The notes beneath the pieces were generated by a model. It saw only the letters and a program-made list of their open reading frames with translations. It made no database searches and was not told the DNA's origin. Positions 49,738-56,894 of a stretch of DNA of 64,000 nucleotides are shown one piece after another. This DNA is from an uncultured bacterium (lineage in GTDB: Bacteria; UBP6; UBA1177; JAKLFG01): positions 174 to 64,173 of the forward strand of contig CALMRE010000219.1 in NCBI GenBank assembly GCA_937871295.1, given 5' to 3'. Position numbers and translations under genes: made by a program. Each line of letters starts with the position of its first letter. The stretch's first letter is position 1.

Positions 49738-50436
49738 CTAGTATTTCTTGAGGTGCGCCTCGGTGACGAGGTAGGCGCCGTCCTCTTCCTTCTTCTCTAT
49801 CTTTATCAGAACCAGCGACTTCGGACGGACCACCAGCAGGTCGGACTTGCGCTGGTTATCCTCGTCGTCGATGTCGGCCGCGTTCTTTTTCATCTTAAAG
49901 AAGGCGACCGCCTTGACCGGTCCCTTGAGTTTCGAGAATTCACCGGTTTTCGGCCCGAAGCGGACCACGGCGTCGATTTTCATGAGGCCGTCGAGCCCCG
50001 AAAAGGAGACCGCGCTGATCTCCGCTTCGGCCATCTCATCGGCGCCGGCCGTTTGCCGCAGTTCTATCGGAACGGTCAGCGGTTCGGCCGTCTCTTTCTT
50101 TTCGCGCAGAAGCGCCAGCGGATCGTTTTTTAGCGAAACGCCGGTGTCGACCCCCGCCACCGCGCCGAGGAGCGTTTCCTGTTCCACCGAAGCGAAGTAG
50201 ATGCCGCCCAAGCGGAGTTCGACCGTCTGGTCGGGCAGTTTCTCGGCCAGTTTCTCCTTTATTGCCGCCGTGTTGAGTCCTTTCTTGAGTTTTATCAGTA
50301 CCCCGCCCCCCTTGAGGTTCCAACTCTCGGCCAGAACGGGGAGATAGGTACCGTCGGCACCCTTCACCAGAAGCGGGTCGGCCCGCAGGGTGACCGCCGC
50401 CGCGATGATACAGAGGAGAAAAAATATCGTTCTCAT
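49738..50436 (-). CDS. Secreted hypothetical protein
   Basis: Signal peptide MRTIFFLLCIIAAAVTLRA. The ORF-track N-terminal extension (to 51066) was rejected; it overlaps the HD-domain gene. Confidence 0.45.
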   Translation of the reverse strand: MRTIFFLLCIIAAAVTLRADPLLVKGADGTYLPVLAESWNLKGGGVLIKLKKGLNTAAIKEKLAEKLPDQTVELRLGGIYFASVEQETLLGAVAGVDTGVSLKNDPLALLREKKETAEPLTVPIELRQTAGADEMAEAEISAVSFSGLDGLMKIDAVVRFGPKTGEFSKLKGPVKAVAFFKMKKNAADIDDEDNQRKSDLLVVRPKSLVLIKIEKKEEDGAYLVTEAHLKKY

Positions 50437-51011: not shown

Positions 51012-51189
51012 GGGGCTCTCCCCGTTCAGTCCGGCGGAATAGTACCGCCGGAAGGGATAAAATCAAGTTTCCAAAGGGGAAACGGAGCGCGCGAAAAAAT
51101 TTGACTTCGACGGGCCATTCTGCTACCTTCGGTGCGACTCATTTCTTTCCATTCGGAGTTAACGGGAAACCTTGAGAGGAGGATGCTCC

Positions 51190-51423
51190 ATGAAGAAACT
51201 TTTTCTGCTGGTCGTGCTTGTGGCGGCGGTTGCCGCTTCCTGCACCCAGCCCCGGTTCATCACCCACATGACGCACCGTGACAAGGACAACACCATCAAG
51301 TTCGTCACTTATCAGGAGCGTTTTATGAAGACCCCCGACTATCAGGTCTTCAAGTGCAACATGGAAGCCGACGGCCGCCTGTTCCAGTGCCGTGCGATGA
51401 CCCTAACTTGGAACTTGGACTAA
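51190..51423 (+). CDS. Small lipoprotein, paralog 1 of 4 (C-N-x-x-D-x3-FQC family)
   Basis: Lipobox AASC; FKCNMEADGRLFQC. SD GGAGGA 7 nt upstream. Confidence 0.55.
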   Translation: MKKLFLLVVLVAAVAASCTQPRFITHMTHRDKDNTIKFVTYQERFMKTPDYQVFKCNMEADGRLFQCRAMTLTWNLD

Positions 51424-51436
51424 GGAGGGAAGTACT

Positions 51437-51736
51437 ATGAAAAAACTTATTCTGGTGCTTTCGCTCGTCGTGATGCTGATCGGGACATCCTGCATGACCC
51501 GCAACATCCGCAAGATCACCGATCACAACACCCGTCCGCTGACCGCTATCGAGTCGGCCGACTGGTACATGTCCCGCGAGATCGTCCGCTTCTTCCTCTC
51601 GTTCGCCGGTGCTGAAGCGGCCGCCAAGTATCCGACCACCCTGTATCGTTTCTGGACCTGCGCCGATACCGGCGAAGGACTTGACTGCAAGGTCGAGTGT
51701 GATGGCGAGACCGATCTTGACTGTATCGGCTGGTAA
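51437..51736 (+). CDS. Small lipoprotein, paralog 2 of 4
   Basis: Lipobox GTSC; WTCADTGEGLDCKVEC plus extra Cys. SD AAGGAGG. Confidence 0.55.
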   Translation: MKKLILVLSLVVMLIGTSCMTRNIRKITDHNTRPLTAIESADWYMSREIVRFFLSFAGAEAAAKYPTTLYRFWTCADTGEGLDCKVECDGETDLDCIGW

Positions 51737-51748
51737 GGAGGTAACACT

Positions 51749-52048
51749 ATGAAAAAAATAATTATTCTCGCTATCGTGGCGATGTCGCTGATCTTCACCG
51801 GGTGCGCCTCGCCCCAGTGGCTCACTTCCAACAAGTTCCTCGGCGAAGACAAGATCATGAAGGAGTTCTACGCGCTCCGCATCCAGGCGGCGCAGGCTGT
51901 GGTCGATGACCAGAATACCGAATACTTCGACTACACCGTCCGCGTCTGCAATGTCGACGACAGCGGTACTCTGAGCCAGTGCATGGATACCGTCATCCTC
52001 GAGAACGTGATGCAGAACACCTTGTACAACAACTTTGCCGAGAACTAA
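51749..52048 (+). CDS. Small lipoprotein, paralog 3 of 4
   Basis: Lipobox FTGC; RVCNVDDSGTLSQC. SD AAGGAGG. Confidence 0.55.
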   Translation: MKKIIILAIVAMSLIFTGCASPQWLTSNKFLGEDKIMKEFYALRIQAAQAVVDDQNTEYFDYTVRVCNVDDSGTLSQCMDTVILENVMQNTLYNNFAEN

Positions 52049-52063
52049 ACGAGGGAGTAACAC

Positions 52064-52483
52064 ATGAAAAAGATACTGCTTATCTGCGCGGTCGTCGCGG
52101 CCCTCGTTATGGTGTCGTGTACGGTCGAGAAGAGAACGGTCACCGCGAAGCACAAAAAGAACGAGACCACCTTCTACTGGGCCTACTACGAGTGGGAAGA
52201 AAGTTCCTTCTTCTTCACTTGGGTCCATGATGACTGGTCGAAGGTCAAGCGCTGCAACCTGCGCGACGACAACACCTTCCAGTGTGTCGAAGAGCAGGAG
52301 GCGATCGCCGTCATCAACCCGCAGTGGACCGGTGAAGTGAACCAGTCCAGCGGTGAGCCGGCCTCGGCCGAAGCGGCCCCGGCCGAAGAAGCGGCCCCCG
52401 CCGAAGCGGCTCCGGCCGAAGCGGCCCCCGCGGAAGAGGCTCCCGCCGAAGCTCCGGCTGAGGAAGCGCCCGCCGCCGAGTGA
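52064..52483 (+). CDS. Small lipoprotein, paralog 4 of 4, with C-terminal (AAPAE)n acidic repeat tail
   Basis: Lipobox MVSC; KRCNLRDDNTFQC. The tail is EAAPAEEAAPAEAAPAEAAPAEEAPAEAPAEEAPAAE. SD GAGGGAG. Confidence 0.55.
   Translation: MKKILLICAVVAALVMVSCTVEKRTVTAKHKKNETTFYWAYYEWEESSFFFTWVHDDWSKVKRCNLRDDNTFQCVEEQEAIAVINPQWTGEVNQSSGEPASAEAAPAEEAAPAEAAPAEAAPAEEAPAEAPAEEAPAAE
52360..52482 (+). repeat. 15-bp tandem repeat (gccgaagcggccccc-type) encoding (AAPAE)n
   Basis: Seven to eight imperfect units are visible in the DNA. Confidence 0.55.
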
Positions 52484-52508
52484 TCGCGCGGTAAGATTCT
52501 GCTTTTAG

Positions 52509-52537
52509 GACCCCGCTTTCGAGCGGGGTCTTTTTTT
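52509..52537 (+). terminator. Rho-independent terminator after the lipoprotein array
   Basis: gaccccgc-tttcga-gcggggtc hairpin (8-bp GC stem) followed by TTTTTTT. Confidence 0.6.
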
Positions 52538-53567
52538 ATTGAATCATTCCAACCGCGTCGAGGTCGAAGCCGGCGCTCTCATGGGTCGGGCAGGGGTCGT
52601 AGATCGGGCGGCCGCCGTTGTCGGTCATAGAGCCGTCGCCCCGGACATCGACGACACGGACATGGGTGACGGCCGACAGGTTGACCGTCGCATCCTTCCC
52701 GGCAAGCGTCGCGAGATCGAACGGGACGCCCCATCCGGCGCGATACTTCCCGGCAAGGCCGTCGATGAGCGCCGGATCGAGCGTGCCGTATTCGGAGACC
52801 GGCTCGGTGCCCAGATAGGTCGCGCCAAACCGGACGAAGGTAACGCCGTCGCTCGACACCTCCACAAAGGCAAGCTCCAGAAAATCGTCTGAAAAAGAGT
52901 TCTCGAACACGACGATATCGGGTCCGTCGCCGTCGGTCAGCGGTTCGTCGAAGGTCAGCGTGATACTGCCGCCGTCGCCCAGAGAGACGACCGCGGTCGC
53001 GTTCCCTTCGGCCGGACCGAGCGCCTTGTCGGTATCCTTCCACTCCTCGGTCAGATTGTCGCCCCGGACCACTTCGGCGATGCCGGAGGCCCATGCGGTA
53101 ATGCGCGGGTCATCCTTCGCGACGGCGGGAGAGCCGGTGGTGCCGGCTGCTCCCGCGAAGGTCGTGGGGGTCAGTTTGGTCCACCCGAAGCCGTTGCACC
53201 CGGTGTCGAGTTTCTCGGCGTCGGCCGGGACGGCCGCCTCGGCCTCGGCCGCCGAATCCTTGTCGTAGACCGTCTGGCAGAAGTAGAGGTCGTCGCCGCT
53301 CCACGCCCAGTCCATCCGGCTCCACTTGCCGGGGTTGAAACTTTTCACGGCGTCGTTCTGCGCCACGACAAAGTCCTTTTTGTTGTCGTACTTCGTGATG
53401 TGAAATATCCCCATATCGCCCTGATCCCACAGCGTCGCGGTGATGACATGGGTATACTCGTAATCGTCGCTGTAGGTGCCGATGATCTCGATAGGTCCCT
53501 GTTGTTTCTCCTCGTCGCAGGCGAACAGGAACAGGAACATGAAAAGAGCGGTGAACAGGTTCTTCAT
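52536..53567 (-). CDS. Surface lipoprotein, hypothetical (second lipoprotein downstream of btuB)
   Basis: Lipobox LFLFACDEE; a beta-rich, Asp/Gly-rich C-terminal half. Confidence 0.45.
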   Translation of the reverse strand: MKNLFTALFMFLFLFACDEEKQQGPIEIIGTYSDDYEYTHVITATLWDQGDMGIFHITKYDNKKDFVVAQNDAVKSFNPGKWSRMDWAWSGDDLYFCQTVYDKDSAAEAEAAVPADAEKLDTGCNGFGWTKLTPTTFAGAAGTTGSPAVAKDDPRITAWASGIAEVVRGDNLTEEWKDTDKALGPAEGNATAVVSLGDGGSITLTFDEPLTDGDGPDIVVFENSFSDDFLELAFVEVSSDGVTFVRFGATYLGTEPVSEYGTLDPALIDGLAGKYRAGWGVPFDLATLAGKDATVNLSAVTHVRVVDVRGDGSMTDNGGRPIYDPCPTHESAGFDLDAVGMIQ

Positions 53568-53588
53568 CCGTTTCCTCCTATAAAGCGC

Positions 53589-54818
53589 TTATGGTTCGTG
53601 TATCCAGAGACGGAGCGCCGCGGGGGCGCCGTCGAAGGGTATCGTTGTTATCGTGCCGGTCGCGGTGTCGAGTGCGTTGAGGCGGCTGCGCGGAGAGCCA
53701 TCCACGAATATCTGATCGAAGAAATAGACTCGTCCGGTGAAGGGGCTCTGGTCTATCGGTATCGCGGCGAAGGCGTTAATGTCGCTCACGATACGCCGCA
53801 CCGTGCCGTCGCGTTCGAGTACCTGCAGGTGCCCCTGCCAGTCGCCGTCCATCGCGGTGAAGTAGATGCGGCCGTCGGCAAGCACCGCCAGATCGCCCAT
53901 CTTCACATCGAGCGGCGAATGCTCGTCGGTCGTTTCGTGCAGGATGACGGAGACAGTGCCGCTGAAAAGATCGACCCGGACAATGCCGCCGTCGCGTGCC
54001 TGATAGGACCCGGAGCACGAGACGAAAAGCTGGTCGGGCGAAAGGAGCGGGTTGACCGCCAGCTTCGAGGTGGGATCGGCAAGCGGCAGGTCGATGGGGG
54101 AAAGCGGTGTCCCCTCGGCGGTATGACGGGCAAGCCGTCCGCCGCGCGAAAGCCAGTCGGGACCGAGCAGTTGGAGCGCCGTCACCGTCCGTCCGCCCGT
54201 TCGCAAAAGCCCCGCGGGGGCCGGATCGGTGCCGTCGGGGGCGAAGGCGGCGAGCGGTATCTCGCCCGCCGATTTCCCGGAGCCGTCGAACAGAAGCAGG
54301 CGGTCGTACTGGTTCGCCGAAACGATGTAGCGCGTCCCGTCCCAGAGGGCATCGTAGAAATTGGCGTAGCGGTCGACCGGCGAGGCGATGGTGGTGTAAC
54401 GCGGATCGCCGTCGCGCGGTTCGTAGACCCAGACGGTGTCGGCGCCGTCGCGGCCGACGACCATGAGCCGGTCGGCGGCGGTCGCGAGCGTCAGGTCGGT
54501 CCCCTCGGGGCCTCCCAGCGGCGTCGGGAAGGTCAGTTCACGCAGGTCGTCCAGCCGTTCCCCCGGCGCGAGGAGGATATGGCCGGAGCGCGGGGCGTCG
54601 TAGCCGCCGGTCGTCGCGATGACCAGATCGGCGGCGACACAGGAACCGAGATAGGGATGGGTTCCGGCGGGGCAGACGGTATCGTCGTCGGGAACCGTGC
54701 TGTCGGTCAAGGCGGTATAGTCGGTCGTCGCGGCCATATCGATGTCGGCGGGCAGTTCGGTAAGGTCCGGAGCGCAAGCGATCGGCAGAAAGGCCATGAG
54801 GAACAGTAGCCGTTTCAT
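53589..54818 (-). CDS. Beta-propeller-like surface lipoprotein immediately downstream of btuB (BtuG-like by position)
   Basis: Lipobox LPIACAPD; repeated beta-strand/DG motifs. SD GGAGGGGG upstream of the ATG. Its start overlaps the TBDR stop. The track ORF extension to 55280 was rejected. Confidence 0.5.
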   Translation of the reverse strand: MKRLLFLMAFLPIACAPDLTELPADIDMAATTDYTALTDSTVPDDDTVCPAGTHPYLGSCVAADLVIATTGGYDAPRSGHILLAPGERLDDLRELTFPTPLGGPEGTDLTLATAADRLMVVGRDGADTVWVYEPRDGDPRYTTIASPVDRYANFYDALWDGTRYIVSANQYDRLLLFDGSGKSAGEIPLAAFAPDGTDPAPAGLLRTGGRTVTALQLLGPDWLSRGGRLARHTAEGTPLSPIDLPLADPTSKLAVNPLLSPDQLFVSCSGSYQARDGGIVRVDLFSGTVSVILHETTDEHSPLDVKMGDLAVLADGRIYFTAMDGDWQGHLQVLERDGTVRRIVSDINAFAAIPIDQSPFTGRVYFFDQIFVDGSPRSRLNALDTATGTITTIPFDGAPAALRLWIHEP

Positions 54819-56860
54819 ACGCCCCCTCCGATGTCGAGGGCAAGGCCGAGATAGAGCGATACCCCGGCGGTGCCGTAGCCTTTCACCAGTTCGTACCGGT
54901 CGTCGAAGAGATTCTCGATGCGGCCGAAGATACGGCAGAGCGGCGCGGCGCGCACCGATACGGCGAGCGACCCGATGACGGCGGTCGGGAGCGTCACGGT
55001 GACCGGTTCGTACGGATAGCGGTACTCGATATCGCGGCGCGGGCCGATGACCGTCACCCCCAAGTTCGCGTTGAAGATCGGGTCGGGATTCCAGTCTGTC
55101 CAGAGGTTGGCGAGGTGGGCGGGACGCCGCAGGACCGGCCGGGTGTCGCGCCAGTCGCGGCCGTCGTAGGTGACCACGGCGAAGGCGTCGGTGGCGGTGT
55201 AGGTGTAGTTGGCGGTGATCGTGAGGGTCCGGTGGGGCCGCGCCGAAAGGGCCGTCTCGATGCCCCACGCCGTCAGCCACCCGATGTTCTGATAGCGTCC
55301 GCAGAGCATCCCGTCACAGCCGTAGGAGAACTCTATCGCGCTGCGTGTCTCCTGATAAAAGCCGTTCACTTCGATGAGAAGCTGGCGCTCCCACAGCCGT
55401 TGTTCGATACCGCCGTCGAGGGCATTGGTCTCTTCGGGACGGAGGAATTCCGAGCCGTACTTGCTGTAGAGCTGGAAGAGACTCGGCGGCTTGAAGGCGC
55501 TCCCGACGCTCGCCCGCAGAGTCGTGTCGCTCGGGGCGATGAGGTAGGCCGCCTCCACACTGTAGGTGCCGCGCGGCAGCTTCTTCAGATATTCGCTTGC
55601 GAGCAGTACCGGCGAGCCGGTCGTGTCGAGGGTCGTGTGATGGAGACGGTACAGGAACAGGTCGAACCGGCCGCCCGCCGTGATGGAGAGGCCGTCGAGC
55701 GGCGTCACGGTGTCCTGCAGATAAAGCCCGAGGTCAAAGGAACTTTTCCGGTCAATAGCAAGGCCGGTGACGGGCCGCGTGCGGTCGTTTTTCTGATCGG
55801 CGGCCCCCTGTCCGGCGGTGAATACCGCGCCGGTCCGGAGACGATTGTAGGGGATCGCGGTGATGTCGTTACGCCATGCCGCCTCGATGGTGTCGCCGAT
55901 AAAGAAGATGCGCGAGAACCCCCATTCGTCCTGCGGGCCGTTGGGTTGATTGCGGTCGTCGCAGGAACGGCGGGCGACGGAGAGTTCGAAGGTCTGGCCC
56001 CATGCACCGTCAAAAAGAGAACCATCTGCCGCGAAATGTCCCAGCAGGCGGTCCGAGGAGAAGATGCGGTCGGGGTCGTCGCGCCAGCGCCCCGGTCCGT
56101 TGTCGATATCGGCGTCGGCGCCGATGTAACGGAGCGCTGCCGAAAACCGCCACCGGTCGCCCGCCGCGACGCCGAACCGTCCGGCGACGGTCAGAGTCCG
56201 TGCACGGTCCTCCTCGCTGTTGCCGTCGTGTTCGGCCGCCGCCGAATAGCCGCCGGTGTCGAGATAAGAAGCGTTCATCGCGTAGTCGCCGCGTGCCGTG
56301 CCGCCGCGGAGTCCCGCCGACAGCCGCAAATGGTTAACCGCGATGTCGCCGGGGGCGAGATCGACCATGCCGCTTTCGGCGGAAAGTGAAAGACGGGCCG
56401 GACCGCCGCCCCCCCGCGAGGTGATGAGGACCGCGCCGCTCATCGCGTCGGGACCGAAGATGACCGCCTGCGGGCCGCGCAGTATCTCAATGCGCTCGAT
56501 GCCGTCGGCCATGATGTCGGACAGATCGGCGGCGTTCTCGACCGAAAAGGGGTCGTTGAGCCGCACCCCGTCGAGGAGTACCAGCGCGTGACCGCCTTTC
56601 CCTCCGCGTATGAAAAGGCTCGTCAGCCCGCCCGCACCGCCGGAGGTCGAGATGTGGATGCCGGGCGTTTCGCGCAGGAGTTCGGCGACGGTATCTTTTT
56701 GTTTCTTCTCTATCTGTTTTTCGGTGATGACGGTGGTGGCGCGGGCGGTATCATCGCCCTCCCGCTTTTCGCTCACGACGGTGCGATAGGGCTCTTCGGC
56801 GGCATGAAGGGCACAAAAGGAGATAAGGGAGAATAACAGGATCGCCGTACGCACAGGCAT
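54815..56860 (-). CDS. btuB: TonB-dependent outer-membrane receptor, BtuB-like (cobalamin riboswitch-controlled)
   Basis: Signal peptide; plug domain (TVITEKQIEKKQ, IRGG); a 22-strand barrel; a cobalamin riboswitch in the 5' leader. Start at MPVRTAILL. Confidence 0.8.
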   Translation of the reverse strand: MPVRTAILLFSLISFCALHAAEEPYRTVVSEKREGDDTARATTVITEKQIEKKQKDTVAELLRETPGIHISTSGGAGGLTSLFIRGGKGGHALVLLDGVRLNDPFSVENAADLSDIMADGIERIEILRGPQAVIFGPDAMSGAVLITSRGGGGPARLSLSAESGMVDLAPGDIAVNHLRLSAGLRGGTARGDYAMNASYLDTGGYSAAAEHDGNSEEDRARTLTVAGRFGVAAGDRWRFSAALRYIGADADIDNGPGRWRDDPDRIFSSDRLLGHFAADGSLFDGAWGQTFELSVARRSCDDRNQPNGPQDEWGFSRIFFIGDTIEAAWRNDITAIPYNRLRTGAVFTAGQGAADQKNDRTRPVTGLAIDRKSSFDLGLYLQDTVTPLDGLSITAGGRFDLFLYRLHHTTLDTTGSPVLLASEYLKKLPRGTYSVEAAYLIAPSDTTLRASVGSAFKPPSLFQLYSKYGSEFLRPEETNALDGGIEQRLWERQLLIEVNGFYQETRSAIEFSYGCDGMLCGRYQNIGWLTAWGIETALSARPHRTLTITANYTYTATDAFAVVTYDGRDWRDTRPVLRRPAHLANLWTDWNPDPIFNANLGVTVIGPRRDIEYRYPYEPVTVTLPTAVIGSLAVSVRAAPLCRIFGRIENLFDDRYELVKGYGTAGVSLYLGLALDIGGGV

Positions 56861-56894
56861 TGTCCCTCCGCGGGGTCGCACTGTTCACGATTCC

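Follow-up and report, generated by a model that had tools for sequence, protein, structure and literature searches.

A conserved cassette of four small lipoproteins from uncultured bacteria, a candidate for one cell-envelope complex

Relation to described systems

The lectins RSL and BambL are oligomeric beta-propellers built from short fragments. Beta-propellers are almost always single chains, and the oligomeric ones that are known are homo-oligomers (PMC6805158). They offer a comparison for the locus described here, a cassette of four small lipoprotein genes (A, B, C and D) on a contig from an uncultured bacterium (CALMRE010000219.1, of which we analysed a stretch of 64,000 nucleotides, called the window below). 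Oligomeric propellers are like the assembly proposed below for the products of A to D in two general respects: the blade unit is a four-stranded antiparallel sheet, and the complete fold requires several chains. They differ in that they are soluble homo-oligomers of identical or two-blade chains, whereas the cassette would supply four different lipid-anchored chains with predicted hairpin disulfides and without sequence similarity to the propellers, for which a toroid is unproven.

Other comparisons come from the lipoproteins of the envelope. BamB-E of the beta-barrel assembly machinery (BAM) are likewise several distinct lipoproteins that work together, but they are larger and mutually unrelated, their genes do not form a single operon, BamA is at the centre of their machine, and they have no homology to A-D. 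BamJ gave an NCBIfam match of 13-14 bits (cut-off 100), to the signal peptide only. YgdI/YgdR (DUF903, NF033216) are small enterobacterial, all-beta lipoproteins of ~70-75 amino acids with a very short tether, a likeness that does not extend to the Cys pair or to the four-gene set, both of which they lack, and their scores were 14.5-16.7 bits against a cut-off of 42. Across YgdI/YgdR, TssJ, EexN, entericidin and BamJ, matches stayed at 11-19 bits against cut-offs of 27-100, and most covered the signal peptide only.

Four families in one invariant order

The cassette had been picked out by a first-pass annotation, made by reading the sequence, as an operon of four tightly spaced small lipoproteins of 77-139 amino acids with strong Shine-Dalgarno sequences. 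The open reading frames bear this out (Table 1): the A-B, B-C and C-D gaps in the window are 13, 12 and 15 nucleotides, and a GGAGG-type Shine-Dalgarno sequence lies ahead of all four starts. Each protein begins with MKK[LI], as had been written, followed by 13-14 hydrophobic residues and, at residue 18 or 19, the Cys of a lipobox (AAS-C, GTS-C, FTG-C or MVS-C). The features of a lipoprotein (a basic n-region, a hydrophobic h-region and a lipobox [LVI][ASTVI][GAS]-C) are present in all four, and none of the ortholog alignments shows any variation at the lipobox Cys. The Pfam model LPAM_1 scores below its cut-off on the window proteins (13.5 bits against 20), so the assignment follows from the sequence pattern, by which A, B, C and D are predicted to be lipoproteins of the signal peptidase II type.

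The composition of the cassette is constant. Hidden Markov models (HMMs) of the four families, run against six-frame translations of the window and 38 fetched loci (numbered L001 onwards), found A, B, C and D exactly once each at every one of these loci, the window included. On contigs that span two or more of the genes, the order is always A-B-C-D. Host GC content across these loci ranges from 41 to 71%, divergence goes down to about 30% identity, and the genes that flank the cassette at one locus are unrelated to those at another. In L024, L025, L029 and L035, start codons directly adjoin or overlap stop codons. L035 also holds a natural fusion of C and D in operon order: P0091 (L035 1944-2486) is one 180-amino-acid lipoprotein, with A and B before it, and the D profile matches its residues 114-175 (independent E-value 6e-6). 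Ratios of nonsynonymous to synonymous substitution rates (dN/dS) between the window and L001 are 0.19 for A, 0.21 for B, 0.15 for C and 0.10 for D, and at greater, partly saturated distances they range from 0.16 to 0.65. The genes are taken to be real because orthologs exist and because dN/dS is this low for all four; the comparison with L001 gave no sign of relaxed or positive selection.

These results bear on the role that had first been suggested, that of a diversified array of paralogs, surface-exposed or immunity-like, whose copy number might vary among relatives. A tandem set of distantly similar small lipoproteins would suit such an array, as would a GC content slightly below that of the flanks (0.52-0.58 in the cassette against 0.60-0.69, a drop that the annotation had also recorded). 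However, copy number and order are fixed throughout the window and the 38 loci, and the genes are under purifying selection (dN/dS 0.10-0.21). A PADLOC search with the window proteins gave 0 hits, PHROGs gave matches with E of 0.002 or worse, most of the stronger ones beginning in the signal-peptide region, and no match was found in phages, plasmids or viral contigs. We give a copy-number-variable, diversifying array next to no credence; what the sequence comparisons show is the mark of a multi-subunit module with a fixed make-up.

All relatives come from uncultured organisms. A word-indexed search of 5.8 billion proteins recovered 6 relatives of C only, and exact look-ups of the window's own C protein found no contig. 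Two mixed-alignment searches (with the other three families, the second also with C) brought in some two dozen more relatives, belonging to A, B and D. When 1.84 billion representatives were searched exhaustively with HMMER and the C profile, 79 matches resulted. About 75 of these are clusters of small C-like lipoproteins of 78-115 amino acids, all metagenomic, which share one layout and in which the Cys pair never varies. Distant relatives of C, at ~30% identity, are again third in a four-gene cassette (L017, L019/L020, L036-L038), and a metagenome scan yielded 14 further loci with the same arrangement. The closest genomes are metagenome-assembled genomes (MAGs) labelled 'uncultured Spirochaetales bacterium'. 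Occurrence is confined to uncultured lineages (Spirochaetales MAGs and many unclassified contigs, GC 41-71%), and of 20 cluster members that were looked up, every one derives from a metagenome or a MAG and none has a functional name. The family had not been recognised at first reading, and profile searches agree: neither the window proteins nor distant orthologs had a Pfam or NCBIfam match above the curated threshold (most matches were to the signal peptide), and the 78-sequence C profile matched no PDB sequence. A, B, C and D are four new protein families in one obligate cassette, new as a system, whose function and oligomeric state are matters of inference.

The large proteins among the HMMER matches are spurious: P0031 and P0065 are eukaryotic repeat proteins, and P0087 and P0090 are fibronectin type III (FN3) repeat proteins that match in a hairpin only. 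The latter score because the F-G hairpin of FN3 (TxYxFRVCAVDxAGNxS) mimics the lipoprotein hairpin and because 6-7 weak repeat matches are summed. The motif in common is Y-x-[FV]-R-V-C-x-V-D-x-x-G-x-x-S; an FN3 sandwich has 7 strands against the 4 predicted in the lipoproteins, and one hairpin matches, which makes this a local resemblance and not homology. The same mimicry could give false positives with any future HMM of the C family.

All four genes had been called paralogs. Profile-profile comparison of the mature parts (hhalign) sustains this in part. A and C, which align over the whole domain (probability 92%, E 6e-7), are clearly paralogs by this measure. D is probably related to the A/C set: it aligns plausibly with A, with the strands in register (probability 32%, E 5e-4), and weakly with C, in the hairpin only. 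For B, paralogy with A, C and D is unproven. What B shares is architecture only: a lipobox with a short tether behind it, then four strands, of which the hairpin has the form C-x8-C. It has a second Cys pair in addition.

Single-sheet subunits and their possible assembly

A disulfide loop with the motif C-N-x-x-D-x(3-4)-[FL]-x-Q-C had been proposed as the common element of the four proteins. The stretches quoted for it are present exactly as given: A has FKCNMEADGRLFQC, B has WTCADTGEGLDCKVEC, C has RVCNVDDSGTLSQC and D has KRCNLRDDNTFQC. The two Cys survive wider comparison: all 78 of the 78 homologs of the C family have the pair (in that alignment three Cys are invariant, the lipobox Cys included), and it is also kept in the orthologs of A, B and D. 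The N and the Q of the motif do not survive, and what the wider family conserves is the two Cys and a Gly-containing turn. In B, all four non-lipobox Cys are invariant across 13 sequences.

AlphaFold models were obtained for B and C. The B model, from 13 sequences, has a mean predicted local distance difference test (pLDDT) score of 76, with strands at residues 20-29, 35-44, 68-77 and 82-88 and a helical insert at 45-63. The C model, from 78 sequences, has a pLDDT of 83.5 (90-96 in the core strands), with strands at 23-30, 35-43, 59-69 and 75-88 and a helix at 89-97. Both are single four-stranded antiparallel beta-meanders that start 1-4 residues past the lipobox Cys. In both, the Cys pair sits on the neighbouring strands 3 and 4, in agreement with the idea of a disulfide loop, and each of the four subunits would carry a hairpin disulfide. 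Conserved hydrophobic residues line both faces of the C sheet (78-sequence alignment). An NTF2-like or SnoaL fold was considered and rejected, as its alpha+beta cone, with three helices packed into a curved sheet, is not present.

The explanation that we favour, and rate as slightly more likely than not, is that the products of A, B, C and D together build a single lipid-anchored, hetero-oligomeric complex in the cell envelope. The fixed set and order, the C-D fusion, purifying selection, the single-sheet models, the two-sided hydrophobics and the invariant Cys all argue for a complex, as do the short gaps and overlapping codons, the unrelated flanks, and the conserved promoter (described below) together with the strong Shine-Dalgarno sites. 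The four subunits would be made in matched amounts from one strongly expressed, translationally coupled operon. Each mature subunit would be little beyond one beta-meander, with its outer hairpin (strands 3-4) stapled by the disulfide, and such a disulfide points to folding in an oxidising compartment, that is, the periplasm or the cell surface. Since a single sheet cannot bury hydrophobic residues on two sides by itself, the four sheets would pack together, and since all four N-termini are anchored just before strand 1, they would hold the assembly flat against a single leaflet of the membrane. Ancient duplication would have given rise to A, C and probably D, which then became non-interchangeable. 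As to the cellular role, our guess is a structural or ligand-binding envelope module.

Several points weigh against a complex. Both the hetero-oligomerisation of A-D and the membrane-apposed geometry are inferred, and co-occurrence plus one fusion would also fit four proteins of one pathway that form no stable complex. The mature part of B gave nothing significant against A, C or D. The models include the signal-peptide helix, and they were built from alignments of little depth for B and of moderate depth for C. When the proteins flanking the cassette in 10 contexts were compared all against all with BLAST, no conserved neighbour emerged, and so no functional hint, and all members come from uncultured organisms.

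A rival reading has four independent, co-regulated small lipoproteins (abundant envelope proteins, or binders of different ligands) that form no complex: A, C and possibly D are paralogs, and many bacterial small lipoproteins act singly. However, independent paralogs are normally gained, lost and reshuffled, whereas here the set and its order are invariant at ~30% identity and from 41 to 71% GC. The existence of a C-D fusion also speaks against independence, and a lone sheet with hydrophobics on both sides is unlikely to be stable. We regard four independent proteins as unlikely.

If there is a complex, one geometry that it could adopt is a hetero-tetrameric, four-bladed ring like a beta-propeller, with four single-blade subunits around a pseudo-fourfold axis. 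The lipid anchors would all emerge close to the axis on the same face, and the central channel would have a binding site on or in it. The models are consistent with this to the extent that a four-stranded antiparallel, up-and-down meander is the definition of a propeller blade, and hydrophobics on both faces of a sheet are expected of a blade between two neighbours. There are always four subunits, with their anchors directly ahead of strand 1, and homo-oligomeric propellers made from short fragments are documented (PMC6805158). On the other side, searches of Pfam, NCBIfam and PDB sequences showed no kinship with any known propeller superfamily, the subunits (55-80 amino acids) are longer than typical blades, and the 79 HMMER matches include no single-chain A-B-C-D fusion. 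Stacked sandwiches or sheets joined edge to edge fit the data equally well. Because the case for a ring is one of generic fold similarity, we rate this geometry as improbable. If it were true, it would be, to our knowledge, the first natural propeller made from four different single-blade polypeptides. The ring would then be an intermediate between the lone blade and the single-chain propeller that diverse uncultured bacteria have kept in their envelopes.

Whatever its geometry, the cassette appears to be an envelope module of small size, strong expression and deep conservation, and no database describes it. If its single-sheet subunits do form one complex, it would be a new type of membrane-anchored assembly and could serve as a natural test case for the origin of repetitive folds such as propellers from separate peptides. 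At a minimum, the families A, B, C and D can now be annotated together, and because they strictly occur together, co-expression offers a simple test of the system.

Accessory tail, boundaries and neighbouring genes

The (AAPAE)n acidic tail that had been noted in D is encoded by a tandem repeat of period 15 with 6.1 copies (Tandem Repeats Finder, TRF, which called it at 52359-52452). In the mature part of D, the hairpin is followed by a conserved segment, EEQEAxxxxNPQ, and then by this low-complexity tail. The length of the tail differs among D orthologs: a tail-like segment is missing from D in L017, L019 and L021, and it is internal to D in L025, L029 and L033. In L035 such a segment is found on B (1471-1947), where it is C-terminal, acidic and His-rich (…QEQHHEEHHDAEPTDHQDEGELQ) and looks like a possible metal-binding segment. 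Three loci carry a fifth gene past D (L011 9357-9608, L012 5798-6049 and L013 10865-11083) for a lipoprotein of 72-83 amino acids in which the signal peptide and lipobox are followed by nothing but a repeat rich in Pro, Ala, Glu and Thr, which amounts to a free-standing D tail; the window has no such gene. Going by this distribution in the sequences, the Pro/Ala/Glu tail is a mobile, lineage-specific accessory and not a core feature. It may act as an extended, acidic, disordered spacer or brush that is put on different subunits by different lineages. Extended Pro/Ala-rich linkers are found in the OmpA hinge, the Pro-rich region of TonB, the LpoB linker and the linkers of E2 lipoyl domains. The (A)APAE tail is like these in composition and in its probable extended, flexible conformation, but it ends the protein, with no domain beyond it, and elsewhere it shifts between subunits or stands alone.

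The cassette is bounded by a promoter and a strong terminator, as had been proposed. In an alignment of seven divergent upstream regions (those of the window, L001, L006, L007, L008, L011 and L013, with GC of 42-61%), the sequence AAAAA(A)TTGACTT (window 51094-51107) is invariant, and so is a TA (TAnnnT) 17-18 nucleotides past TTGACTT. The A-tract resembles an UP element and stands next to a consensus -35, which suggests strong constitutive expression. A generic sigma-70 scan made no call on the operon promoter because the -10 matches at only 3 of 6 positions. The terminator hairpin (52507-52532) has an 11-bp stem with 7 GC pairs, a 4-nucleotide loop and a T-run. Rfam matches at 52470-52540 stayed below threshold (rnk leader at 30 bits, with a gathering score of 55; anti-hemB; NsiR1); each of them coincides with this hairpin and gives no evidence of an RNA gene. 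Rejected, as a high-GC artefact, was an open reading frame of 292 amino acids that runs antisense over most of the cassette (51350-52228, minus strand); the sense frames have orthologs under purifying selection. High-GC relatives carry similar long antisense frames.

Table 1. Positions in the window of the cassette, its control elements and adjoining genes
Feature	Position	Strand	Description
Operon promoter	51094-51129	+	A-tract; -35 TTGACT at 51101-51106; 17-nucleotide spacer; -10-like TACCTT at 51124-51129
Gene A	51190-51423	+	77-amino-acid lipoprotein (open reading frame with translation, orthologs); lipobox Cys18; hairpin Cys56/Cys67
Gene B	51437-51736	+	99-amino-acid lipoprotein; lipobox Cys19; further Cys75/84/88/96
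Gene C	51749-52048	+	99-amino-acid lipoprotein; lipobox Cys19; hairpin Cys67/Cys78
Gene D	52064-52483	+	139-amino-acid lipoprotein; lipobox Cys19; hairpin Cys64/Cys74
15-nucleotide tandem repeat in gene D	52356-52466	+	Codes for the acidic (A)APAE tail (TRF)
Intrinsic terminator	52507-52540	+	Common to the operon and the convergent downstream gene
343-amino-acid lipoprotein	52536-53567	-	Weak LIC13354- and LIC13355-like matches
413-amino-acid lipoprotein	53589-54830	-	Weak SGL/propeller signal
TonB-dependent receptor	54815-56881	-	Plug and barrel
231-amino-acid secreted protein	49738-50433	-	Between a RimO-like radical-SAM gene and an HD-domain gene; no Pfam match

Downstream, the cassette adjoins a convergent operon of three genes (52536-56881, minus strand) for a TonB-dependent receptor and two lipoproteins, which raises the question of whether A-D could be accessory lipoproteins of that receptor system. 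The convergent arrangement with the receptor operon recurs in three upstream contexts (the window with L001, L006 and L007; L010-L012; L013-L016), which counts in favour of an accessory role. However, no such receptor is nearby in L008, L017, L019-L021 or L024-L036, and the adjacency is limited to one clade; the two operons converge, and a conserved promoter and a terminator of its own serve the cassette. We therefore consider an accessory role in the receptor system very improbable.

Two further neighbours have a thematic link to the cassette but are each limited to a single lineage and are not conserved elsewhere among the loci: a 647-amino-acid thioredoxin-domain (DsbH-like) protein encoded directly upstream on the same strand in L036-L038 (L036 5475-7418), and the lipoprotein diacylglyceryl transferase Lgt, convergent and just downstream in L008 (4578-5441). 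On the other side of the cassette in the window lies the gene for the 231-amino-acid secreted protein, and the trio that it forms with the RimO-like and HD-domain genes adjoins the cassette also in L001, L006, L007 and L008, where the L008 copy of the 231-amino-acid protein is 38% identical to that of the window.

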